Counted from the stretch's first letter, positions 20,366-50,129 are shown. The stretch: DNA of 64,000 bases from Escherichia coli (GCF_044647545.1 NZ_CP172818.1); one strand, 5' to 3'. Translations and numbers: made by a program. The notes: generated by a model from the letters alone, not told the origin.

Positions 20366-22189
20366 GTGATCGAAAAATTGCGTAATATCGCCATCATCGC
20401 GCACGTAGACCATGGTAAAACCACCCTGGTAGACAAGCTGCTCCAACAATCCGGTACGTTCGACTCTCGTGCCGAAACCCAAGAGCGCGTGATGGACTCC
20501 AACGATTTGGAGAAAGAGCGTGGGATTACCATCCTCGCGAAAAACACCGCTATCAAATGGAATGATTACCGTATCAACATCGTTGATACCCCGGGGCACG
20601 CCGACTTCGGTGGTGAAGTTGAACGTGTAATGTCCATGGTAGACTCAGTGCTGCTGGTGGTTGACGCATTTGACGGCCCGATGCCGCAAACGCGCTTCGT
20701 AACCAAAAAAGCGTTTGCTTACGGCCTGAAGCCGATTGTTGTTATCAACAAAGTTGACCGCCCTGGCGCGCGTCCTGATTGGGTTGTGGATCAGGTATTC
20801 GATCTGTTCGTTAACCTCGACGCGACCGACGAGCAGCTGGACTTCCCGATCGTTTACGCTTCTGCGCTGAATGGTATCGCGGGTCTGGACCACGAAGATA
20901 TGGCGGAAGACATGACCCCGCTGTATCAGGCGATTGTTGACCACGTTCCTGCGCCGGACGTTGACCTTGACGGTCCGTTCCAGATGCAGATTTCTCAGCT
21001 CGATTACAACAGCTATGTTGGCGTTATCGGCATTGGCCGCATCAAGCGCGGTAAAGTGAAGCCGAACCAACAGGTTACTATCATCGATAGCGAAGGCAAA
21101 ACCCGCAACGCGAAAGTCGGTAAAGTGCTGGGCCACCTCGGTCTGGAACGTATCGAAACCGATCTGGCGGAAGCTGGCGATATCGTGGCGATCACGGGTC
21201 TTGGCGAACTGAACATTTCTGACACCGTTTGCGACACGCAAAACGTTGAAGCGCTGCCGGCACTCTCCGTTGATGAGCCGACCGTTTCTATGTTCTTCTG
21301 CGTTAACACCTCGCCGTTCTGCGGTAAAGAAGGTAAGTTCGTAACGTCTCGTCAGATCCTGGATCGTCTGAACAAAGAACTGGTACACAACGTTGCGCTG
21401 CGCGTAGAAGAAACCGAAGACGCCGATGCGTTCCGCGTTTCTGGTCGTGGCGAACTGCACCTGTCTGTTCTTATCGAAAACATGCGTCGTGAAGGTTTCG
21501 AACTGGCGGTATCCCGTCCGAAAGTAATCTTCCGTGAAATCGACGGTCGTAAACAAGAGCCGTATGAAAACGTGACGCTGGACGTTGAAGAACAGCATCA
21601 GGGTTCTGTGATGCAGGCGCTGGGCGAACGTAAAGGCGACCTGAAAAACATGAATCCAGACGGTAAAGGCCGCGTACGTCTCGACTACGTGATCCCAAGC
21701 CGTGGTCTGATTGGCTTCCGTTCTGAGTTCATGACCATGACTTCCGGTACTGGTCTGCTGTACTCCACCTTCAGCCACTACGACGACGTACGTCCGGGCG
21801 AAGTGGGTCAGCGTCAGAACGGTGTACTGATCTCTAACGGTCAGGGTAAAGCGGTCGCGTTCGCGCTGTTCGGTCTGCAGGATCGCGGTAAGCTGTTCCT
21901 CGGTCACGGTGCAGAAGTTTACGAAGGTCAGATTATCGGTATTCATAGCCGCTCTAACGACCTGACTGTAAACTGCCTGACCGGTAAGAAACTGACCAAC
22001 ATGCGTGCTTCCGGTACTGACGAAGCCGTTGTTCTGGTTCCGCCTATCCGCATGACTCTGGAACAAGCTCTGGAGTTCATCGATGATGACGAACTGGTAG
22101 AAGTGACTCCGACCTCTATCCGTATTCGTAAACGTCACCTGACGGAAAACGATCGTCGTCGCGCCAACCGCGCACCGAAAGACGATTAA
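20366..22189 (+). CDS. typA: Translational GTPase TypA/BipA
   Basis: 607 aa, G-domain motifs AHVDHGKTT and DTPGH, EF-G-like domains. Confidence 0.96.
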
Positions 22190-22206
22190 TTTCGTTTTTT
22201 AGTTAT

Positions 22207-22239
22207 AAAAAACCTGCCATCGCTGGCAGGTTTTTTTTT
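22207..22239 (+). terminator. Rho-independent terminator downstream of typA
   Basis: AAAAAACCTGCCATCGCTGGCAGG followed by TTTTTTTTT. Confidence 0.7.
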
Positions 22240-22405
22240 GCCTGTCGTGAGCGCACACCAATGCGAGTATCTCCCTTATAAGTCTGTGGTTACGTCAATA
22301 GAGAGCTTTGTCACAATTATCTGCAAAGTCATACGCCGTTAATTGCTTTCTTTTTTGGCGTAAGCGTAAGATGCTTCATCTGGTTTAAACCAAAAGGATT
22401 AAACA

Positions 22406-23115
22406 ATGGCGGAGAATCAATCCACCGTAGAAAATGCAAAAGAGAAACTGGATCGGTGGTTGAAAGATGGCATCACCACGCCGGGTGGAAAACTCCCTTC
22501 AGAAAGAGAGCTGGGAGAACTGCTGGGCATTAAACGTATGACGCTGCGCCAGGCGTTGTTGAACCTCGAGGCAGAATCCAAAATCTTCCGTAAGGATTGT
22601 AGGGGTGGTTCGTGACCCAGCCGCGATTTAATTACAGTCCGGAGCTGTCAGCGAGCTTTCAGCGGGCCGCAATTGAGCAAGGACGAGAGCCTTCCTGGGG
22701 GTTTACCGAGAAAAACCGTACCAGCGATATTCCCGAGACGCTCGCGCCACTGATCGCAGTGACACCATCAACTGAACTCTATCGCATCACCGGCTGGGGG
22801 GCGCTGGAAGGACATAAAGTTTTCTATCACGAAACATATATTAATCCTGAAGTTGCTCCGGGCTTTATTGAACAACTTGAAAACCACTCATTTTCTGCAG
22901 TCTGGGAAAAGTGCTACCAAAAAGAGACGGTAGTAAAAAAATTGATTTTCAAACCCGTCAGAATGCCGGGCGATATCAGCAAGTATCTTGGCGGTTCTGC
23001 GGGTATGCCAGCGATCTTAATTGAAAAGCATCGCGCCGACCAGCAAGGCAATATTGTCCAAATAGATATTGAATATTGGCGATTTGAGGCCGTAGACCTC
23101 ATCATTAATCTGTAG
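22406..23115 (+). pseudogene. yihL: GntR-family regulator YihL, split by an apparent 1 bp deletion near 22601-22610
   Basis: ORFs 22406..22615 (69 aa, winged HTH) and 22612..23115 (167 aa) lie in different frames; combined length equals the 236 aa expected for intact YihL. Confidence 0.7.
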
Positions 23116-23122
23116 GTGTTTT

Positions 23123-24103
23123 ATGGTGACAATAAATAACGCAAGAAAGATTCTACAACGTGTCGACACTCTTCCTCTTTATTTACATGCTTATGCCTTT
23201 CATTTAAATATGCGGCTGGAAAGAGTGTTGCCTGCTGATTTACTTGATATCGCAAGTGAAAATAATCTACGTGGCGTCAAAATCCATGTTCTCGATGGCG
23301 AGCGTTTTTCTCTTGGTAATATGGACGATAAAGAACTCTCTGCCTTTGGGGATAAAGCCCGCCGTCTGAACCTTGATATTCATATTGAAACCAGCGCCTC
23401 AGATAAGGCATCTATTGACGAAGCCGTCGCCATCGCGTTGAAAACTGGGGCATCGTCCGTACGTTTTTATCCACGTTATGAAGGTAATTTGCGCGACGTA
23501 TTATCGATTATCGCTAACGACATTGCCTATGTACGGGAAACGTATCAGGACAGCGGCCTGACTTTTACGATCGAGCAGCATGAAGATTTAAAAAGTCATG
23601 AGCTGGTGTCGCTGGTCAAAGAAAGTGAGATGGAATCTCTTTCCTTACTGTTTGATTTTGCGAACATGATCAATGCAAATGAGCATCCCATCGACGCTTT
23701 AAAAACGATGGCACCGCATATTACCCAGGTCCATATCAAAGATGCCTTGATCGTTAAAGAACCGGGTGGCCTGGGTCATAAAGCCTGTATTTCAGGTCAG
23801 GGTGATATGCCGTTCAAAGCGTTATTAACGCACCTTATCTGCCTGGGTGATGATGAGCCGCAGGTGACGGCATATGGCCTGGAAGAAGAGGTTGATTACT
23901 ATGCGCCGGCGTTCCGCTTTGAAGACGAAGATGATAATCCGTGGATCCCTTATCGCCAGATGAGTGAAACACCATTGCCAGAAAATCATTTACTGGATGC
24001 GCGGTTACGTAAAGAAAAAGAAGATGCAATTAATCAGATAAATCATGTGCGTAACGTACTACAACAAATCAAACAAGAGGCAAACCATCTTCTGAACCAC
24101 TAA
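23123..24103 (+). CDS. yihM: Sugar phosphate isomerase/epimerase (xylose isomerase-like TIM barrel) YihM
   Basis: 326 aa ORF; synteny yihL-yihM-yihN. Confidence 0.85.
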   Translation: MVTINNARKILQRVDTLPLYLHAYAFHLNMRLERVLPADLLDIASENNLRGVKIHVLDGERFSLGNMDDKELSAFGDKARRLNLDIHIETSASDKASIDEAVAIALKTGASSVRFYPRYEGNLRDVLSIIANDIAYVRETYQDSGLTFTIEQHEDLKSHELVSLVKESEMESLSLLFDFANMINANEHPIDALKTMAPHITQVHIKDALIVKEPGGLGHKACISGQGDMPFKALLTHLICLGDDEPQVTAYGLEEEVDYYAPAFRFEDEDDNPWIPYRQMSETPLPENHLLDARLRKEKEDAINQINHVRNVLQQIKQEANHLLNH

Positions 24104-24204
24104 TAAGTTTTAACTCATACGCAGTTAATAAAACCATTCCATATGAATGGTCGGTATCTTATTGCCTTTAAAACAGTGATTTTAAAAATCGCTTAGGGGA
24201 TGTT

Positions 24205-25470
24205 ATGCTCACGAAAAAGAAATGGGCGTTATTTAGTCTATTAACACTGTGTGGCGGTACAATTTATAAATTACCGTCGCTGAAAGATGCGTTTTATATC
24301 CCGATGCAGGAATATTTCCATTTGACCAATGGTCAAATTGGTAATGCTATGTCGGTAAACTCATTTGTCACCACAGTGGGCTTTTTTCTGTCTATTTATT
24401 TTGCCGATAAACTACCGCGCAGATACACCATGTCATTCTCACTCATTGCGACAGGATTACTGGGTGTTTATTTGACGACAATGCCGGGGTATTGGGGCAT
24501 CCTCTTTGTCTGGGCGCTATTTGGCGTTACTTGCGACATGATGAACTGGCCGGTCTTGCTCAAGTCGGTAAGTCGATTGGGCAATAGCGAACAACAAGGT
24601 CGGTTGTTTGGCTTCTTCGAAACAGGGCGTGGCATTGTCGATACCGTGGTGGCATTTTCTGCGTTGGCAGTATTTACCTGGTTTGGCAGTGGCTTATTAG
24701 GTTTTAAAGCAGGCATCTGGTTCTATTCCCTTATTGTGATTGCCGTAGGCATTATTATTTTCTTTGTCCTGAATGACAAAGAAGAGGCACCGTCCGTTGA
24801 GGTGAAAAAAGAAGACGGAGCATCGAAAAACACCAGTATGACCTCGGTGCTGAAAGACAAAACTATCTGGCTTATCGCTTTTAACGTCTTCTTCGTTTAC
24901 GCGGTTTACTGTGGCCTGACATTCTTCATTCCATTCCTGAAAAACATCTATCTATTGCCCGTTGCGCTGGTGGGGGCTTACGGCATCATTAACCAATACT
25001 GTCTGAAAATGATTGGTGGACCGATTGGTGGCATGATTTCAGATAAGATCCTGAAATCGCCAAGTAAATATCTATGCTACACCTTTATCATTAGTACCGC
25101 TGCGCTCGTACTGTTGATTATGCTGCCGCACGAAAGTATGCCGGTCTATTTAGGGATGGCATGTACGCTGGGCTTTGGCGCGATAGTCTTTACACAGCGA
25201 GCCGTATTTTTTGCACCTATCGGCGAAGCAAAAATTGCTGAAAATAAAACAGGTGCGGCGATGGCGTTGGGTAGCTTTATTGGTTACGCTCCGGCGATGT
25301 TCTGCTTCAGTCTGTATGGCTACATTCTGGATTTAAATCCGGGGATTATTGGCTACAAAATCGTGTTTGGCATTATGGCCTGCTTCGCATTCAGTGGTGC
25401 GGTGGTTTCCGTAATGCTGGTTAAGCGTATTAGCCAACGTAAGAAAGAGATGCTGGCGGCTGAAGCTTAA
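24205..25470 (+). CDS. yihN: MFS transporter YihN
   Basis: 421 aa ORF with ~12 hydrophobic segments. Confidence 0.85.
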   Translation: MLTKKKWALFSLLTLCGGTIYKLPSLKDAFYIPMQEYFHLTNGQIGNAMSVNSFVTTVGFFLSIYFADKLPRRYTMSFSLIATGLLGVYLTTMPGYWGILFVWALFGVTCDMMNWPVLLKSVSRLGNSEQQGRLFGFFETGRGIVDTVVAFSALAVFTWFGSGLLGFKAGIWFYSLIVIAVGIIIFFVLNDKEEAPSVEVKKEDGASKNTSMTSVLKDKTIWLIAFNVFFVYAVYCGLTFFIPFLKNIYLLPVALVGAYGIINQYCLKMIGGPIGGMISDKILKSPSKYLCYTFIISTAALVLLIMLPHESMPVYLGMACTLGFGAIVFTQRAVFFAPIGEAKIAENKTGAAMALGSFIGYAPAMFCFSLYGYILDLNPGIIGYKIVFGIMACFAFSGAVVSVMLVKRISQRKKEMLAAEA

Positions 25471-29199: not shown

Positions 29200-31236
29200 T
29201 TAGATGCTTTTTAACGACGCGAACAGTGCCGCCCATTCGCTATCGGCGCGATAAAAGACCGGCGGTTTACCGATGGGCGCATTAACGGTAACTTCCCCGC
29301 CCCGGAACGCTTCACCCGTCCAGGCATGGACCCAGTTATCCTCCGGCAGATAGAGCGTCCAGTCGCTACGGCCTTCTTCATGCACCGGAGCGACCAGAAT
29401 GTCGCGGCCTAACAGGTACTGATATTTCAGGGTGTAGGTCTGCGCGTCGTCTTCGTAATGCAGGAACAGCGGGCGCATAACCGGCAGGCCGGACTTCGCA
29501 TTCAGCGCGACGGCCTCTTTCAGGTAAGGTTTCAGGGTGGTGAAGACGGTGGTCATACGGGCAAAATGGGCGATGGTTTCCGCGTCGCCGTCAAACTGCC
29601 AGTTGTCGCCAGGACGGTTACCTTCGTGGGTGCGCATCATCGGCGTGAAGGCGCTGAAATCGCACCAGCGCAGCAGCAGCTCTTTGCTGCGCTTCATCTC
29701 AAACAGGGTGGTGTAACCGCCAATATCGCTGTGATGCAGGCCATGTCCGGTCATTGCCAGCGACAGCGCCGCCGGGACAACCGACGCCAGGCCATCGTCG
29801 AGACTCCAGTCGACGTTCTGGTCGCCCGCCCACATCATGGTGGAGTATTTCTGGCTACCGGTAGAACCGGCGCGCATAAAGAAAAGGATCTCGCCAAGCT
29901 TGCCCGTTTCTTCAAGGGCTTCGTAGTTACATTTCGCCCACAGTGCGGGCCAGGCGTTATGCATAATTTCCGCGCTGACGCCGTTATGCAGGTAAGTGTC
30001 GGTGGGCAGATACTCGCCGAAGTCAGCCATCCAGCCGCCGCAGCCGAGTTCAATCATGTTCTTTTTGATCACTTCCTTGAACCAGGCGTAGGCTTCTGGA
30101 TTGGTGAGATCGACAACGCCGCCATAGAACTCGCCAAACTCCACCAGATAGTCGCCGCCAGAGGCATCTTTTGCCAGATAGCCGTGTGAAGCCGCCTCGG
30201 CGCAGAGGTCCTTATCGCTGGCAACATACGGGTTGATGTAGGCGAGGAACTGCACGCCTTCTTTGTTCCACTGTTTAATACGCGAATCCAGTTGCGGATA
30301 GTTTTCGCTGTTCCACTTCCAGTTCCACATCACACGTTTACCAAACGAGGTCATACGGATCCCGGACCAGTCCTGCGCCCAGATGCCGTTGACCTTCACG
30401 CCCGCGTTACGCATGGTGTCCAGTTTCTTCTGGCACACCTCAGTGCCGCCCTGAATGCCGAGCGTTACCCCGTCATAAATCCAGTCGGGCAGTTCTGGCT
30501 GGCGTCCCAGCAGGGCAGTTAATTTTTCCAGCAGGGAGATGTATGTATCAGCACATTCAAAACGCAGCGTTGCTTTGTCTTCCCACAGCGCCAGTTCATG
30601 GTATTCCGGGGCGCTAAAGTCGAAGTTCATGTAGCAACTGTTATCAACATGGCAGTAATACTTCTGCGTGCTGACAAACGTAGGCTGTGGGAAGAAAGTC
30701 CAGTAATAGTCGCCGCCCGCGTTCTCTTTGCAGTCGGCCTGCCAGGTGACATAGGTTTGCTTGTTGCGACCAACGCCTTGTTCACTGGTCCATAGCGGGA
30801 ACGGTTTGCCGCGCAGATCAAAGTAGGAGAATTGTTCACCGCAGCCGTAGATATGGTCCTCTGGTTGAGCGGCAAGGCGCAGCCAGATACGGTTGTGGTT
30901 AAGGTTGTCGTTTTGTAGTTCCAGCAATAAACGGCCCTGTTCGTCGGCAGAGATACGCAGCGTGGCGCTAATGTCAGAACCACGGCTGAAATGGATTAAC
31001 CAACCATCCGGTGACTGGCTGACGATGGCGTCGGTAAGCGCAATTTTCTCCTGTAGTTTATCTTTAATGCTGAAATTGCCGCGGAACATATCGATATCCG
31101 CAATACCTGAACCAATCCATAAACAAGGATTATCTTTGCTATGGGTTAAAATAAGACGCTGTTGAAAATGTAGGGTAAAACTGTCGTTATTCTGATGAAA
31201 CTGAAAATCTGGTAATTGTGGGCGTGGCGTATCCAT
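29200..31236 (-). CDS. yihQ: Sulfoquinovosidase (GH31 alpha-glucosidase family) YihQ
   Basis: 678 aa ORF with GH31-type catalytic region (GIWAQDWSG, WMADFGE). Confidence 0.9.
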   Translation of the reverse strand: MDTPRPQLPDFQFHQNNDSFTLHFQQRLILTHSKDNPCLWIGSGIADIDMFRGNFSIKDKLQEKIALTDAIVSQSPDGWLIHFSRGSDISATLRISADEQGRLLLELQNDNLNHNRIWLRLAAQPEDHIYGCGEQFSYFDLRGKPFPLWTSEQGVGRNKQTYVTWQADCKENAGGDYYWTFFPQPTFVSTQKYYCHVDNSCYMNFDFSAPEYHELALWEDKATLRFECADTYISLLEKLTALLGRQPELPDWIYDGVTLGIQGGTEVCQKKLDTMRNAGVKVNGIWAQDWSGIRMTSFGKRVMWNWKWNSENYPQLDSRIKQWNKEGVQFLAYINPYVASDKDLCAEAASHGYLAKDASGGDYLVEFGEFYGGVVDLTNPEAYAWFKEVIKKNMIELGCGGWMADFGEYLPTDTYLHNGVSAEIMHNAWPALWAKCNYEALEETGKLGEILFFMRAGSTGSQKYSTMMWAGDQNVDWSLDDGLASVVPAALSLAMTGHGLHHSDIGGYTTLFEMKRSKELLLRWCDFSAFTPMMRTHEGNRPGDNWQFDGDAETIAHFARMTTVFTTLKPYLKEAVALNAKSGLPVMRPLFLHYEDDAQTYTLKYQYLLGRDILVAPVHEEGRSDWTLYLPEDNWVHAWTGEAFRGGEVTVNAPIGKPPVFYRADSEWAALFASLKSI

Positions 31237-31554
31237 AAATAATCTCCATAGAGTATAAAGCTAATATTTCATGCCATCCTGTTGTTACAGGTTTCATTAA
31301 TTAAAGATTGTGTGCTATAAATAAAACCCCATAAGTGATATATAAAAACTTTTTCAGCCCGGCGGATTGCCGCCATTTTTAACCAAAAATGCCAGTTACA
31401 ATAATAACTAACAATAAACGGAGCAGAATCCAGCCGGGAATTCCCATCCCTTTTATCAACATAGAACCGGAGGCAATCAGCAACAAAAAGACCATCACAC
31501 GGAACACTTTGACTGAAAGCGTTTATGCACATATCTCCAACAAGCGAACCGAGA

Positions 31555-31945
31555 ATCAGGAAAACAAAAAACACCAGTTAAAAAAAGAAACATCAAAATC
31601 CCCCCCCCCCGCCCCCCCCGCCCCCCTTTTTGGGGAAAAAAAGGGTCCGAGGCCCCGAATCCCCCGGGCCCAATTCCAGCATACCTACACCCCCGCCCCG
31701 CCCCCCGCCCCGCTCGCCGCTACTCGCCGATACGCCGCGACCATAACGTCAAAACGACAGACAAGAAATAAACATAAAAAAAAAAAAAAAGAAAAGGATC
31801 CCCCTACCCATTAAAAACGTACATACAAACACACAAACAAACAACAAAAAAAAAAATAACGCCCCCCCAACACAAAAAAAAAAACCCCAACAAAAAGAAA
31901 AAAAAAAAAAAAAAAAAAAAAAACACCCCCCAAAAAAAAAAAAAA
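31555..31945. other. Anomalous low-complexity tract (A+C only; homopolymer runs of C and A up to ~26 nt)
   Basis: Directly visible: CCCCCCCCCCCGCCCCCCCCGCCCCCC, AAAAAAAAAAAAAAAAAAAAAAAAAA and similar; G nearly absent for ~250 bp; no plausible coding frame. Confidence 0.9.
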
Positions 31946-32008
31946 CATAATATTTCCTGTTGTGTAAATACAACCCTAAACAATGATCTCGTTCTTTTCT
32001 TAATAAAA

Positions 32009-32978: not shown

Positions 32979-34220
32979 TTATTTCGCATTCACGTCCAGC
33001 AGACCCGCCGCAACTGCCGGAGCCAGGCCTGGCGCTAACGGGATACGCGGGATCACCAGGCAATGCAGCAGGTGATAAATATCCTGTTTGCCGTCCCAGA
33101 CTTTGGTGGTGACCTTATTGTCCGCATCCAGCTCCTGCCACCAGGAACCATTTTCATAGTCCATCAGGTACTTAATGCAGTACTCCCACCATGTCTGATA
33201 CCAGGTTTCGTACTGGCGATCGCCGGTGACGGTGTAGAGCGCGTAAGCCGTACCCATCGCCTCGACGATAGGCCAACGCACACGTTCGCGAACGACCGGT
33301 TTTCCTTCCCAGTCAACGGTATAAACAATCCCGTCCGCACCATCGGGCGCCCAGGCATCGCGCACGGTGGCGTTGAACAGACCTTTGGCATCTTCTAACA
33401 GCCAGGCTGGCGGCTGTTCGCCGCGGGCTTCCAGGGCGGCATGGATGTGCAGCATTAAACGACCCCACTCGATCCAGTGGCCTGGCGTGCCTCCGAATGC
33501 GCGGAAGCGGTGCGCCGGGTTATCTTTGTTGTAATCCGGCAGCGGATTCCACTGGGTATCGAAGTGCTCGTTAACGCGATAATGATTATTTCTGGCGACG
33601 TCGTGGATAATGACGGAAGCCACGCGAATCGCGCGATCCAGCCATTTTTTGTCATGGGTGACGTCATAGACAATCAGGAAGGCTTCCACCGCGTGCATAT
33701 TGGCATTGCCGCCGCGATACTCTTCGGTTTTGCTGAAGGCTTCATCCCAGGACTCCAGGCACATCTGCTCTTCTTCGCTCCAGAAGTATTTCTCGATAAT
33801 TTCAATGGTGTAATCGAGCAGCTTGCGCGCTTCCGGGTGACCCGTTGTGACGGCACTGGCGGCACCCAGCAGGGCAAAGAAATGTTGATAGCCCTGTTTG
33901 GAGGCATCCACCACGCCCTCGTCATTCACACAGGCATACCAGCCGCCATATTTTTTATCGCGCAGTGCGCCATTCATGGCTTTGATACCGTGATCAACCA
34001 ACGAGTAAGCGCCAGGGCGGCCCATCGCCGCAGCAACGGAATAAACGTGCAGCATACGGGCGGTGATCCACAGATGCGTGCCCATCTCTTCTTTGATTTG
34101 CCCTTTATTGCCCAGCCAGCCAAAGCCAGTCGGCACCACGGCATTCTTACCAAAATCAAAGATGCGATCGGTTTCCTGTTCCAGCCAGCGGTTGTGACTT
34201 AAGGTGTTAAACCATTTCAT
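32979..34220 (-). CDS. yihS: Sulfoquinovose isomerase YihS (N-acyl-glucosamine 2-epimerase fold)
   Basis: 413 aa ORF, length and synteny match. Confidence 0.88.
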
Positions 34221-34235
34221 TTTTGTATCCCCATC

Positions 34236-35114
34236 TTAACGGCGTTTAGCCATCATTTCGTCGACGATATCGCCAAGTTGTTGTAATTTCGGTGCGCAAA
34301 CGTCACGCAGCATCAGCTCGTTGTCTGGTAAACCGACAACCGATGCCCAGACGGCACGACCAGCCAGGAAGCCCGATGCACCCGCTGTCATTGCCACGCG
34401 TACGGCACGCGGGAACAGTTTTTCGTCGACACCGGAAGAAAGTATCACCCACGGCATATTGATATGGTCATTCAGACGTTGTGAAGCACTGAGAAGCTCT
34501 TGTTGCGGACCTTTACCGTAAAGCGGCATTTCAACTTTGTAGAGGTCAGCGCCACTGTCGCCCAGCTCTTTGGCAGCATCGATGATCGCTTGTTCGCGAT
34601 CGAATTTATCGCCACGACGTGGTGGGCGGACGACTGGCTCAATAATGCTTACCAGGCCGTGTGAGTGGCACAGTTCGTTAAACTCTTTCACCATATCCAG
34701 ACGTTGCTGCGCATCTTCATCACTACGCCACAGCACCAGCAGTTTTAAGGCTTTGCCACCGTCTTGTTTGATTTGTAGCGGATTGATTTTGCGGTCAATG
34801 ACCACGCTATCTACCGGAATACCGTTGCCAGGAATGAACTCATCGGCGGCGACAATCATGGCGCAACTTTTGGCAATCGCGTTTTGCTCAACCACCTGGC
34901 GGTAACAGAATTGTTGATCTACCAGAATCGCCGAGGCATAAGGCGAGAGGGTCTTCGCCGCGTTAACTTTGAAATCAGTTAAAACGCTATCGGCTACCGG
35001 AGCGGGTGCGCCAGCCGCGGCAAACATCATGCGCATGGCTTCGCGCTGATCGACCGCCAGCATGGCAAAACCGCCCGATGCGCGCGTAATGTCGTTGATG
35101 GTGTACTTATTCAT
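34236..35114 (-). CDS. yihT: 6-deoxy-6-sulfofructose-1-phosphate aldolase YihT
   Basis: 292 aa ORF, class I aldolase-like; synteny. Confidence 0.88.
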
Positions 35115-35137
35115 TCATTTATTCCTTTATCCAGTCG

Positions 35138-36034
35138 TTACATTTTTACTTTGGCAGTCATCCCGGCACTGACACGGACCTGTTCCAGAATGGCGGACCA
35201 GTCCTGGCGACCGCGACCCGCTGCGCGCGCCTGGCTATAAACCTCCCGTGAGGCGGCCCCCAGCGGCATTGGCACATGCAGCTGGTTGGCGACATCAAGG
35301 GCGATACCAAGATCCTTATGGGCAAGATCGATCATGAAGGCGGGAGAAAGATCCCCGCTGAGGACTTTGTTTGGCCAGGAAGTGGTGAAGTGGCCTTTAC
35401 CGGCGGCGGTACCGCTCATCACCTTGACGGCAACATCGAAGGGAAGATTCAGGGCTTCGCACAAAACGGCGGCTTCTGCCGAAAGCGCATTGAGCGCGAT
35501 GCTCATGTAGTTGTTGATGAGCTTAACGCGGATCCCCATGCCCGGACCGCCCGCGTTGATCAACTCACTGCCCATCGCCATCAGGATCGGTGTGGCGCGT
35601 TCAACTTGTTCAGCGGTGCCGCCAGCCAGCAGTAACAGAGTACCGGTAATGGCATTTGCAGAAGTACGGCCTACCGGAACATCCATCATGCTGAAGCCTC
35701 TGGCCTGCATATCAGCAATCAATTTATCGGTTTGCAGTGGGTGGATGGTCGACATATCAATGACCAGCGCATCGGAAGATAAGCTCTCACAGACACCGTT
35801 TTCACCGAACAACACGTGACGCACCAGATCGCCATTCGGCAACATGGTAATGATAAATTCGGCACCTTTAGCGGCCTGCGCCGGGTTGGCGGCGGGAGTC
35901 GCACCTTTGTCTACCAGATGCCGCACAGCTTCGGCGTTCACATCAAAGACGCGAAGTTGATGCCCTTGCTGCAATAAATTGCTCGCCATTGGCGAACCCA
36001 TTTGCCCTAAACCGATAAACGCGATTGCTGCCAT
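35138..36034 (-). CDS. yihU: 3-sulfolactaldehyde reductase YihU (NAD-binding beta-hydroxyacid dehydrogenase family)
   Basis: 298 aa ORF, N-terminal Rossmann motif [10 protein letters not shown]. Confidence 0.9.
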
Positions 36035-36195
36035 AACCCTCTCCTGAATACAGTAATGTCACTTTTTGTCATTTATGACATGCCTTGCTTGTCTGTTTTT
36101 GATCGTATTTGTAATTTATCGTCAAAAAATTGACAGCCGTCACTTTTTAAACAATTGGTGAAATTAAAATGAACGCATCCCAAAATGCTTAAGGA
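36035..36195. promoter_or_regulatory. Divergent yihU/yihV promoter region with repeated TGTCA/TGACA half-sites (candidate CsqR operator)
   Basis: TGTCACTTTTTGTCATTTATGACATG (36056-36081) and TTGACAGCCGTCACTTTTT (36130-36148) contain direct and inverted TGTCA repeats. Confidence 0.5.
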
Positions 36196-37098
36196 ATGAC
36201 CATGATTCGTGTTGCTTGTGTAGGAATTACCGTGATGGATCGCATCTATTACGTGGAAGGATTGCCGACGGAGAGCGGTAAATACGTGGCGAAAAATTAT
36301 ACGGAAGTTGGCGGCGGGCCAGCGGCTACAGCAGCAGTTGCGGCGGCCAGACTAGGTGCGCAGGTCGATTTTATTGGTCGCGTCGGTGACGACGACACAG
36401 GCAACAGCCTGCTGGCAGAGCTGGAATCCTGGGGCGTTAACACCCGTTATACCAAACGGTATAACGAGGCGAAATCTTCGCAATCCGCCATCATGGTGGA
36501 TACCAAAGGCGAGCGGATAATCATTAACTACCCCAGCCCGGACTTGCTGCCTGACGCAGAGTGGTTGGAGGAAATTGATTTCTCTCAGTGGGATGTTGTG
36601 CTGGCGGATGTACGCTGGCACGAAGGTGCTAAAAAAGCCTTCACCCTGGCCCGGCAGGCGGGCGTGATGACTGTTTTGGACGGGGACATTACGCCGCAGG
36701 ATATCAGTGAGCTGGTGGCATTAAGCGATCATGCGGCCTTTTCAGAACCGGGTCTGGCGCGCTTAACGGGGGTGAAAGAGATGGCCAGTGCGCTAAAACA
36801 GGCACAAACGCTCACAAATGGTCATGTCTATGTGACCCAGGGCAGTGCAGGCTGTGACTGGCTGGAGAATGGCGGGCGACAGCATCAACCGGCCTTCAAA
36901 GTTGATGTGGTAGATACCACAGGAGCGGGTGATGTTTTTCACGGCGCATTGGCGGTGGCGCTGGCAACAGGTGGGGATTTAGCGGAGTCAGTCCGCTTCG
37001 CCAGCGGAGTAGCGGCGTTGAAATGCACGCGTCCCGGTGGACGAGCCGGGATCCCTGACTGTGATCAAACCCGATCTTTTTTGTCACTTTTTGTATAA
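36196..37098 (+). CDS. yihV: 6-deoxy-6-sulfofructose kinase YihV (PfkB/ribokinase family)
   Basis: 300 aa ORF; GG motif near N-terminus, C-terminal DTTGAGD motif. Confidence 0.9.
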   Translation: MTMIRVACVGITVMDRIYYVEGLPTESGKYVAKNYTEVGGGPAATAAVAAARLGAQVDFIGRVGDDDTGNSLLAELESWGVNTRYTKRYNEAKSSQSAIMVDTKGERIIINYPSPDLLPDAEWLEEIDFSQWDVVLADVRWHEGAKKAFTLARQAGVMTVLDGDITPQDISELVALSDHAAFSEPGLARLTGVKEMASALKQAQTLTNGHVYVTQGSAGCDWLENGGRQHQPAFKVDVVDTTGAGDVFHGALAVALATGGDLAESVRFASGVAALKCTRPGGRAGIPDCDQTRSFLSLFV

Positions 37099-37107
37099 AA
37101 TGCCAGG

Positions 37108-37917
37108 GTGATGGTTTTTCGAGGAATTTTCATGAGCCTTACCGAACTAACCGGTAACCCGCGGCACGACCAACTCCTCATGCTGATCGCCGAGCGTGGG
37201 TATATGAATATTGATGAGCTGGCAAATCTGCTGGATGTCTCCACGCAGACGGTCCGCCGGGATATTCGTAAATTAAGCGAGCAAGGACTGATTACGCGCC
37301 ATCACGGTGGCGCGGGTCGGGCCTCCAGCGTCGTTAATACGGCGTTTGAGCAGCGTGAGGTTTCGCAAACTGAAGAGAAAAAAGCGATTGCCGAAGCGGT
37401 GGCAGACTATATTCCTGATGGATCGACAATATTTATCACCATCGGTACGACTGTTGAACATGTTGCCCGGGCGTTACTTAACCACAATCATTTGCGGATA
37501 ATCACCAACAGCCTGCGTGTGGCGCATATTCTTTACCACAACCCGCGCTTTGAAGTGATGGTGCCTGGCGGAACGCTGCGTTCCCATAACAGTGGGATCA
37601 TTGGCCCTTCAGCGGCGTCCTTTGTGGCCGATTTTCGCGCCGATTATCTGGTAACAAGTGTAGGCGCAATTGAGAGCGATGGCGCGTTGATGGAGTTTGA
37701 TGTAAACGAAGCTAACGTGGTGAAAACGATGATGGCGCACGCGAGAAATATTCTGCTGGTCGCCGATCACACTAAGTATCATGCTTCGGCGGCGGTTGAA
37801 ATTGGTAACGTGGCACAGGTTACCGCGCTCTTTACCGACGAGCTGCCGCCCGCTGCGCTAAAATCACGCTTACAAGACAGCCAAATTGAAATCATCCTTC
37901 CCCAGGAAGACACGTAG
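37108..37917 (+). CDS. csqR: DeoR-family repressor of the sulfoquinovose operon, CsqR (YihW)
   Basis: 269 aa ORF, N-terminal HTH and DeoR C-terminal sugar-binding domain; true start probably internal. Confidence 0.88.
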   Translation: MMVFRGIFMSLTELTGNPRHDQLLMLIAERGYMNIDELANLLDVSTQTVRRDIRKLSEQGLITRHHGGAGRASSVVNTAFEQREVSQTEEKKAIAEAVADYIPDGSTIFITIGTTVEHVARALLNHNHLRIITNSLRVAHILYHNPRFEVMVPGGTLRSHNSGIIGPSAASFVADFRADYLVTSVGAIESDGALMEFDVNEANVVKTMMAHARNILLVADHTKYHASAAVEIGNVAQVTALFTDELPPAALKSRLQDSQIEIILPQEDT

Positions 37918-37994
37918 AATTTTGTGACCGTTGACCTGCCTTCATACCTGGCCACATAGCCAAACCCATCCTTTCCCGCTACAGTTAATTTCTT

Positions 37995-38615
37995 GTGGCG
38001 CGAAAGGAGGCAAAAATGCTCTATATCTTTGATTTAGGTAATGTGATTGTCGATATCGACTTTAACCGTGTGCTGGGGGCCTGGAGCGATTTAACGCGTG
38101 TTCCACTGGCTACGCTTAAGAAGAGTTTCCACATGGGCGAGGCGTTTCATCAGCATGAGCGTGGGGAAATTAGCGACGAAGCGTTCGCAGAGGCGCTGTG
38201 TCATGAGATGGCCCTGCCGCTAAGCTATGAGCAGTTCTCCCACGGTTGGCAGGCGGTATTTGTTGCGCTACGACCGGAAGTGATCGCCATCATGCATAAA
38301 CTGCGTGAGCAGGGGCATCGCGTGGTGGTGCTTTCCAATACTAACCGCCTGCATACTACCTTCTGGCCGGAGGAATACCCGGAAATCCGTGATGCTGCTG
38401 ACCATATCTATCTGTCGCAAGACTTGGGTATGCGCAAACCTGAAGCACGAATTTATCAGCATGTTTTGCAGGCAGAAGGTTTTTCACCAGACGATACGGT
38501 CTTTTTCGACGATAACGCCGATAATATAGAAGGAGCTAATCAGCTAGGCATTACTAGTATTCTGGTGAAAGATAAAACCACCATCCCGGACTATTTCGCG
38601 AAGGTGTTATGCTAA
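37995..38615 (+). CDS. yihX: HAD-family alpha-D-glucose-1-phosphate phosphatase YihX
   Basis: ORF contains HAD motif I ([14 protein letters not shown]) and motif IV (FFDDNADNI). Confidence 0.88.
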
Positions 38616-49295: not shown

Positions 49296-50129
49296 GTGAA
49301 AAAAACACAGCAAAAAGAAATCGAAAATGTGACAAGTGTCACAGGTGTTCGTCAAATTGAGTTATGGCGGCGTGATGATTTACAACACCCACGGTTAGAT
49401 GAGGTGGCGGAAGAGGTTCCCGTTGCGCTGGTCTACAACGGCATTTCGCATGTAGTGATGATGGCGTCACCCAAAGACCTTGAGTACTTTGCGCTCGGTT
49501 TTTCGCTTTCCGAGGGGATTATCGAAAGTCCGCGCGATATCTTCGGTATGGATGTCGTTCCTTCCTGTAATGGTCTGGAAGTGCAAATTGAGCTTTCCAG
49601 CCGCCGCTTTATGGGGTTGAAGGAGCGTCGCCGGGCACTGGCGGGACGTACGGGATGTGGCGTGTGCGGCGTGGAGCAACTTAATGACATCGGAAAACCG
49701 GTGCAGCCGCTACCGTTCACCCAGACGTTTGATCTCAACAAACTGGATGATGCATTACGTCATCTCAATGATTTTCAGCCAGTGGGGCAACTGACCGGTT
49801 GTACTCACGCCGCCGCCTGGATGTTGCCATCTGGCGAACTGGTCGGCGGGCATGAAGACGTGGGTCGCCATGTGGCGCTGGACAAACTGTTAGGCCGCCG
49901 GTCACAAGAAGGGGAAAGCTGGCAGCAAGGTGCGGTGCTGGTTTCCAGCCGTGCCAGTTATGAAATGGTGCAAAAGTCAGCGATGTGTGGCGTAGAGATT
50001 TTGTTTGCGGTGTCTGCCGCGACCACGCTTGCCGTAGAAGTGGCTGAGCGCTGTAATCTGACACTGGTAGGTTTTTGTAAACCGGGTCGGGCAACGGTTT
50101 ATACCCATCCGCAGCGTTTGAGCAATTAA
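49296..50129 (+). CDS. fdhD: Sulfurtransferase FdhD (formate dehydrogenase maturation)
   Basis: 277 aa ORF; synteny divergent from fdoGHI. Confidence 0.92.

Follow-up and report, generated by a model that had tools for sequence, protein, structure and literature searches.

Introduction

Repressors of the DeoR family are oligomers with several DNA-binding domains. In the family prototype, DeoR acting at deoO1, deoO2 and deoOE, a multivalent oligomer recognizes a half-site (TGTTAGAA) starting with TGT on several operators, which are 16-bp perfect palindromes lying hundreds of base pairs apart and brought together by DNA looping. The tetrameric GlpR binds cooperatively to tandem half-sites of about 10 bp that also start with TGT (approximately ATGTTCGAT) and form regular 20-bp palindromes, in the divergent glpTQ/glpACB region, with co-regulation by CRP. 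UlaR (ulaG/ulaA) and AgaR (aga) are locally encoded repressors of this family with several operators in a short divergent spacer and involvement of CRP, which repress transcription in both directions as well as their own genes, and UlaR needs looping assisted by IHF. For CsqR (YihW), the regulator of sulfoquinovose genes, the primary study is reportedly that of Shimada et al. 2019 (Microbiology 165:78).

CsqR binds strongly to the yihU/V spacer and also to the region upstream of its own gene, as established by gSELEX, EMSA and AFM, and it represses three transcription units, yihUTS, yihV and csqR. Its complexes are large and cooperative, "polymeric" by EMSA and AFM, and are dissociated by sulfoquinovose (SQ), sulfoquinovosyl glycerol (SQGro) and sulforhamnose (SR) (PMC8006165, PMC8249747, PMC12608037). 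In gSELEX the protein was classed as a single-target regulator. Other work on CsqR and the yih genes includes Kaznadzey et al. 2018, Sharma et al. 2021 and Gao et al. 2021, the last using ChIP-exo.

The locus described here is the same as that of E. coli K-12, with which it agrees in protein, target fragments, cooperative binding and release by sugars. The system is therefore already known, and the present analysis is a modest base-level refinement of the CsqR switch: published descriptions, in the parts of the sources accessible to us, resolve binding to fragments or to 41 bp, whereas here we give the repeat anatomy, a shared 13-mer and a cross-species footprint. The overall layout is like that of the GlpR, UlaR and AgaR systems. 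Compared with GlpR, the candidate CsqR units differ in sequence and are mostly direct repeats with A/T-rich spacers. The motif is also distinct from those of UlaR and AgaR, with no sign at this locus of IHF-assisted looping. In contrast to the DeoR operators, the candidate sites are contiguous within about 90 bp, are mostly direct repeats, and have a palindromic arm that is not conserved.

The yih locus and its regulator

The window, meaning the whole 64-kb stretch of DNA that was analysed, comprises the E. coli sulfoquinovose (yih) cluster. Its positions 34000-38500 are 100% identical to several annotated E. coli chromosomes with yihT, yihU, yihV, csqR and yihX. The genes considered and the spacer between them are as follows.

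35138-36034, minus strand: yihU (RefSeq annotation of an identical strain)
36035-36201, no strand assigned: divergent spacer of 167 bp with 34% GC between yihU and yihV, in the literature the main target of CsqR (open reading frames, RefSeq annotation and published binding)
36202-37098, plus strand: yihV (RefSeq annotation of an identical strain)
37132-37917, plus strand: csqR (yihW), encoding a DeoR-family repressor (annotation and Pfam)

The spacer is 99% identical to that of K-12 MG1655, with three differing positions, none of them in the repeats, and no indels. It had been taken in the original prediction to end at 36195, but the annotated start of yihV is 36202 and not 36196, which places the spacer at 36035-36201. 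An in-frame ATG at 36196, two codons ahead of the annotated start, explains the discrepancy, since the shorter spacer assumes this unannotated start. An in-frame upstream GTG is also present in csqR, at 37108, and would give a protein of 269 aa, against 261 aa from the annotated 37132. CsqR has the domain arrangement of the DeoR family, with an N-terminal helix-turn-helix (Pfam HTH_DeoR PF08220, residues 11-66, E=2.6e-23) and a C-terminal DeoRC sensor domain (PF00455, residues 79-237, E=1.7e-49).

Some features of the window lie apart from the switch itself. The cluster of this strain has, relative to K-12, an extra gene of the TauE/SafE family of sulfite exporters between yihQ and yihR (31073-31948, minus strand), where K-12 MG1655 has just a 198-bp gap; a sulfite/sulfonate exporter encoded among sulfoquinovose genes might be relevant to how the sulfonate product is exported. 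Beyond ompL, at about 22000-25200, genes of the STM4012-STM4015 family (a radical SAM protein, a hydrolase and others) stand where K-12 carries yihL, yihM and yihN, and thus the left boundary of the cluster differs among strains. At 49328-49343, in the divergent spacer between a formate dehydrogenase alpha-subunit gene (annotated fdnG) and fdhD, the perfect CRP-consensus palindrome TGTGACAAGTGTCACA is the sole CRP match without mismatches in the window.

Repeat organization of the spacer

The two strings on which the original prediction was based are present where it placed them, TGTCACTTTTTGTCATTTATGACATG at 36057-36082 and TTGACAGCCGTCACTTTTT at 36130-36148. Its spacing of about 75 bp is close to the 73 bp between the starts of the two clusters, but a description as two sites falls short of the near-continuous array. 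Exact TGTCA/TGACA pentamers occur at 36057 and 36067 on the plus strand and at 36076 and 36131 on the minus strand, and a relaxed search with YGTCW adds 36090 (TGTCT), 36120 (CGTCA) and 36138 (CGTCA). A repeat finder grouped the array into a family of three copies (TGTCACTTTTTG at 36057, TGTCTGTTTTTG at 36090 and CGTCACTTTTTA at 36138) and a family of two (TTTGTCATTTAT at 36065 and TTTGTAATTTAT at 36108). The elements to which we refer below are listed here.

36057-36068, plus strand: TGTCA-1 within the 12-mer TGTCACTTTTTG, the best repeat copy and a candidate CsqR half-site, in DNA of the yihU 5' leader (repeats, conservation, identity with the csqR promoter)
36067-36071, plus strand: TGTCA-2, a direct repeat 10 bp after TGTCA-1 with a T-run ahead of it (TTTTGTCA), a candidate CsqR half-site (95% conserved)
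36076-36080, minus strand: TGACA inverted arm, completing the palindrome TGTCATTTATGACA at 36067-36080 (50% conserved)
36090-36119, plus strand: central block of three 10-bp units, TGTCTGTTTT / TGATCGTATT / TGTAATTTAT (repeats, 95% conserved)
36120-36148, no strand assigned: right-hand cluster (repeat and motif searches, conservation)

Degenerate members of the two repeat families are found in the central block, as is a GATC at 36101-36104. The right-hand cluster is composed of CGTCA at 36120, GTCA-N6-TGAC at 36121-36134, TTGACA at 36130-36135, the palindrome TGAC-N4-GTCA at 36131-36142 and CGTCACTTTTT at 36138-36148; it shares bases with the yihV -35 region and with the CRP-like ATTGA-N6-TCACT (36129-36144). 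Read by eye in steps of 10 bp, positions 36090-36149 give TGTCTGTTTT, TGATCGTATT, TGTAATTTAT, CGTCAAAAAA, TTGACAGCCG and TCACTTTTTA, and the left cluster gives TGTCACTTTT and TGTCATTTAT.

Enrichment was assessed against 20,000 dinucleotide-preserving shuffles of the spacer. The four pentamers compare with 0.61 expected (P=0.0013), and the seven GTCA/TGAC cores, with 1.42 expected, were reached in none of the 20,000 shuffles; the exact 10-mer direct repeat GTCACTTTTT, at 36058 and 36139 and thus 81 bp apart, has P=0.035. The spacer therefore contains multiple candidate half-sites, as DeoR-family operators do, in the form of seven YGTCW units within 92 bp that are enriched over shuffles and fall into repeat families of three and two copies. 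It is also the sole place in the 64-kb window with at least four pentamers per 167 bp. A single other patch of the window, at about 21891-22150, reaches seven GTCA/TGAC tetramers per 167 bp. By itself TTTTGTCA shows no enrichment in the window (5 occurrences, 3.45 expected), so that the informative property is the longer element or the clustering.

Promoter positions

The yihV transcript starts at -25/-27 from the ATG, that is at 36175-36177, and yihU transcripts start at 36096/97 and at 36116-36126, with minor starts nearer the gene (PMC5816610). A scan of the spacer for canonical sigma-70 promoters returned none, and the promoter positions used here rest on these published primer-extension starts and an inferred -10.

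36165-36177, plus strand: yihV promoter, with a putative -10 TAAAAT at 36165-36170 and the start at 36175-36177 (start from PMC5816610)

The sequence ATTAAAAT at this promoter is 96% conserved. Given these starts, CGTCACTTTTT covers the yihV -35 position, the yihU starts and their promoter elements fall under the central block and the units at 36120-36135, and TGTCA-1 and TGTCA-2 are within the yihU leader.

Conservation among enterobacteria

A scan for CsqR in one genome per species gave 67 loci, in which the order yihU / yihV-csqR is nearly always kept; the Sinomicrobium and Fluviicola homologues (31-35% identity) were left out as their orthology is doubtful. We aligned 56 distinct spacers, ranging from Escherichia to Pantoea, Rahnella and Leminorella, and 60 distinct regions upstream of csqR. 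Conservation is given as the majority-base frequency across the 56 spacers, which are related by descent and not independent.

36035-36056, 36062-36066 and 36072-36089: flanks of TGTCA-1 and TGTCA-2, conservation 0.59-0.68
36057-36061: TGTCA-1, conservation 0.97
36067-36071: TGTCA-2, conservation 0.95
36076-36080: inverted arm TGACA, conservation 0.50
36090-36119: central block, conservation 0.95
36120-36136: GTCA-N6-TGAC, conservation 0.94
36137-36153: CGTCACTTTTTAAACA, conservation 0.92
36163-36171: yihV -10 region, conservation 0.96
36090-36172: whole 83-bp core, conservation 0.93

Third codon positions in the same species set, used as a near-neutral baseline, reach 0.60 in yihV and 0.63 in yihU. 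The TGTCA repeats are real, non-random and conserved. The layout of direct and inverted TGTCA elements described in the original prediction was upheld for the direct repeats, which are the best-conserved left elements (95-97%), but not for the inverted arm, which at 50% is confined to a minority of lineages, including E. coli, and is probably not a required element. The other palindromes, the right-hand TGAC-N4-GTCA and GTCA-N6-TGAC pairs, are conserved (arms 92-94%, with part of the central N4, 36136-36138, variable) but lie over promoter and CRP-like elements.

The distances within the array are also kept. TGTCA-1, TGTCA-2 and TGTCT stand 49, 39 and 16 bp from the invariant TATTTGTAA in 36 of the 56 species, and within 2 bp of these values in nearly all, despite variation of the sequence between the left and central half-sites. 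From the TATTTGTAA anchor to the yihV -10 the distance is 58 bp in 55 of the 56. The first repeat, on the other hand, lies 10 to 25 bp from the yihU ATG in most species. Since it is the distance to the core that is fixed and the distance to the ATG that varies, the position of the left repeats is tied to the core and not to the gene.

Two side observations may be added. Codons 201-210 of yihV (36802-36831) have a third-position conservation of 0.83, against 0.46-0.57 over the next 70 codons, which could reflect codon bias or an internal regulatory element. An 885-bp contig labelled Bacillus coahuilensis m4-4 encodes part of a CsqR with 100% identity to that of E. coli and is almost certainly E. 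coli contamination.

The csqR promoter and the rest of the cluster

The exact 11-mer TGTCACTTTTT has two copies in the 64 kb, at 36057 and 37082, and the match between them extends to the 13-mer TGTCACTTTTTGT.

37082-37094, plus strand: second exact TGTCACTTTTTGT, in the last yihV codons, a candidate auto-repression operator (exact match, conserved in 60 species)

This copy abuts and overlaps a TATAAA at 37094-37099 upstream of the csqR ATG (37132). The csqR transcript starts at -27/-28 from its ATG, about 37104/37105 (PMC5816610), and for this reason we assign TATAAA as the csqR -10. Thus, the best repeat of the spacer is also found at the csqR promoter, the second known target of CsqR. TGTCACTTTTTGT occurs 46 times in orthologous loci totalling about 800 kb, always at one of the two homologous positions. 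Moreover, where yihV overlies the csqR promoter its third codon positions are conserved at 0.91, compared with 0.46-0.57 in the 70 codons before and 0.60 in the gene as a whole.

Within the 64 kb the element is present upstream of csqR and absent from non-targets. YGTCW is absent from the intergenic regions upstream of ompL, yihO, yihP, yihR, yihS and yihT, and a lone TGTCA lies upstream of yihQ. The original prediction proposed looking for the same half-sites upstream of yihW, yihO and ompL; they are found at the first and at neither of the other two. Their limitation to two yih regions agrees with the two published gSELEX sites. A position-weight matrix derived from the six copies in E. coli gave back its own training sites and nothing convincing elsewhere in the window, its best further matches being at 22929 and 11903, both outside the yih cluster; as such a scan is circular, it was used solely to show the absence of sites in the cluster.

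Published binding sites

The binding of CsqR to the spacer is published, and it is therefore nearly certain that the spacer is the CsqR operator region. In vivo, ChIP-exo gave eight YihW peaks, of which a single one is dominant (NC_000913.2 4071641-4071681, S/N 168, nearest gene yihV; PMC8464067). The reference genome of that study is NC_000913.2, and the alignment between K-12 and the window is indel-free. For the shift from version 2 to version 3 at this locus we take +1977, the assumed difference in MG1655 length. A published U00096.2 transcription start coordinate, together with the NC_000913.3 yihV start at 4073739, confirmed this value within +-1 bp.

36081-36121, no strand assigned: in vivo YihW/CsqR ChIP-exo peak mapped to the window (table of PMC8464067; error +-2 bp)

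The mapped peak falls between the two clusters first noticed, on the conserved central block that had been missed. It covers degenerate copies alone (TGTCT, TGATC and TGTAA) and not the best copies at 36057 and 36138. Hence, the comparison with reported sites bears out the spacer as a bound region and the control of both yihU and yihV by CsqR, for which binding and repression are published, but places the peak outside the repeats originally flagged. Taken together, the original prediction is partly supported: the regulator and the region were right, and the half-site probably so. A GATC (Dam) sequence at 36101-36104, conserved at 95% or more in the 56 species, lies near the midpoint of the peak.

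The other YihW peaks are 12-40 times weaker than the main one (S/N 4-14). The TGTCAC/T-run motif is absent from those at glpA, ssuE, yafO and yhcC, and these secondary peaks may be non-specific. One of them is just upstream of the glpA start and another is upstream of the sulfonate-utilisation gene ssuE. A full-text literature search for the motif strings returned unrelated eukaryotic papers only.

The short cassette

Among 5426 complete E. coli genomes, about 576 have the region in a form that is about 65% identical at the DNA level and appears to be the published "short cassette". In E. coli NT1F25 it consists of an aldolase, a yihU-like gene, a sugar kinase and a DeoR regulator. This regulator shares 72% identity with CsqR across 260 aa, rising to about 90% in the first 60 residues, where the helix-turn-helix is located. 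In this strain yihN and yihM adjoin the cassette, and genes for a zinc alcohol dehydrogenase and for an MFS transporter accompany it.

The central block is retained in the short cassette, as it is in Leminorella. The NT1F25 spacer keeps GTCTGTTTTTGAGCATATTTGTAATTTATG and GACA-N4-TCAC, and on its left side has three TGACA units in the opposite orientation to the long cassette and at different distances. The promoter of its regulator keeps TTTTTGTCAC beside a TAAAAT, with TGTCAC adjoining the -10. When the spacers and the regulator promoters of both cassettes, long and short, were intersected for k-mers on either strand, a single 8-mer, TTTTGTCA, was common to all four; two 7-mers were shared, compared with 0.0025 expected in shuffles.

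Operator models

Judging from the sequence, we find it fairly likely that the TGTCA-type units are half-sites recognized by CsqR, in an array that an oligomer would cover. What we computed in support of this model is the enrichment of the units, their conservation, their fixed spacing and the motif common to the csqR promoter; the model also agrees with the published repression of three transcription units and with the "polymeric" complexes. We infer both TGTCA as the contacted half-site and the geometry of occlusion. In the absence of sulfoquinovose, a CsqR oligomer would bind cooperatively to TGTCA-type half-sites, in their best form TTTTGTCAC/T followed by a T-run, at 36057, 36067, 36090, (36110), 36120, 36131 (minus strand) and 36138, with spacings that are mostly about 10 bp or a multiple of it. 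Occupancy of about 36057-36148 would cover the yihV -35 region and the yihU starts (36096-36126) and would thereby block both divergent promoters, while the two leftmost repeats, in the transcribed yihU leader, would lengthen the complex or hold it in place. Auto-repression would come from the one copy of the best 13-mer that overlies the csqR -10. Binding of sulfoquinovose, its glyceryl glycoside or sulforhamnose to the C-terminal domain would release CsqR, and CRP probably shares the right-hand part of the array.

A large part of the core must also serve two promoters and a CRP site, and therefore conservation alone does not assign its bases to CsqR; TTGACAGCCGTCAC, for example, overlaps the yihV -35 position and the CRP-like site and is not assignable to CsqR alone. 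It is possible, if rather unlikely in our judgement, that the conserved elements are mainly promoter and CRP architecture and that CsqR recognizes another sequence of the central block, such as the TGATCGTATTTGTAA region below the ChIP-exo peak. TTGACA (36130-36135) and GTCAC (36139-36143) would then be -35-type hexamers or CRP half-sites and, as TGTCA resembles the CRP half-site TGTGA, pairs of the type TGTCA-N6-TGACA would be weak CRP sites. CRP does bind the yihU/V fragment in vitro (EMSA), and for csqR a class II CRP site has been reported. The sequence ATTGA-N6-TCACT has its centre some 39.5-41.5 bp upstream of the yihV start, a position suited to class II activation, but is a 3-mismatch match of chance-level frequency: three such matches overlap the repeats (36065, 36120 and 36129), and in the window they number 188 against 218 expected. 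TTGACA is a perfect -35 hexamer, but at 29 bp from the yihV -10 it is too far to serve as its -35, and the consensus scan found no canonical promoter. The position of the ChIP-exo peak between the two clusters also fits a promoter and CRP architecture, as does the fact that the most invariant bases in the deepest comparisons are TATTTGTAA, GACA-N4-TCACT and the -10. This reading leaves unexplained, however, the identical 13-mer on the csqR -10, where no CRP geometry fits, and the conservation of TGTCA-1 and TGTCA-2, which keep a constant distance to the core and are situated in the yihU leader, downstream of the main yihU starts.

A more elaborate form of the CsqR array, which we put forward as doubtful, would treat the 83-bp core as a rigid scaffold on which CsqR polymerises in helical phase along 10-bp TGTCA-like units, competing with CRP for TGTCA/TGTGA-like half-sites. 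It is suggested by the 93% conservation of the core in more than 50 Enterobacterales species, against about 60% at third positions, and by the fixed repeat distances. If this were true, CsqR would be a filament-type DeoR repressor with a CRP/CsqR switch, possibly sensitive to methylation, and not a two-operator repressor.

Two discrete operators (36057-36080 and 36130-36148) with about 50 bp looped out between them, as the original prediction implied, seem improbable. The occurrence of the exact 10-mer GTCACTTTTT in both clusters and the CsqR oligomerisation suggested in the papers are in line with such a loop. However, the ChIP-exo maximum falls within the supposed loop, where conservation is the highest in the spacer and degenerate repeat copies occur; the 81 bp between the two copies of the 10-mer correspond to about 7.7 helical turns, so that these copies are not on the same face, and the published AFM and EMSA describe cooperative coating and not looping. 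E. coli DeoR loops DNA over longer distances.

Finally, a structured RNA element or sensor in the yihU 5' leader made from the -82/-92 starts, conceivable in that the upstream yihU starts (36116-36126) would put the strongly conserved 36035-36126 in the mRNA leader, was rejected as highly improbable, given that there is no Rfam match at E<=1, that the leader fold (-9.4 kcal/mol, z=-0.44) is no better than shuffles, and that the conservation extends upstream of every mapped yihU start and is near-invariant with no covariation signal.

Significance

Few organosulfur compounds in nature are more abundant than sulfoquinovose, and the yih cluster serves as the model for how enterobacteria of the gut and of plants degrade it. 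A base-level model of the operator, with CsqR on an array of TGTCA-type half-sites, points to the bases to mutate and could aid the search for CsqR targets in other genomes. It may also offer a possible reason for the differing response of short-cassette strains. The known logic of the system is unchanged by these findings, with a local DeoR-type repressor that is released by the sugar and acts together with CRP.
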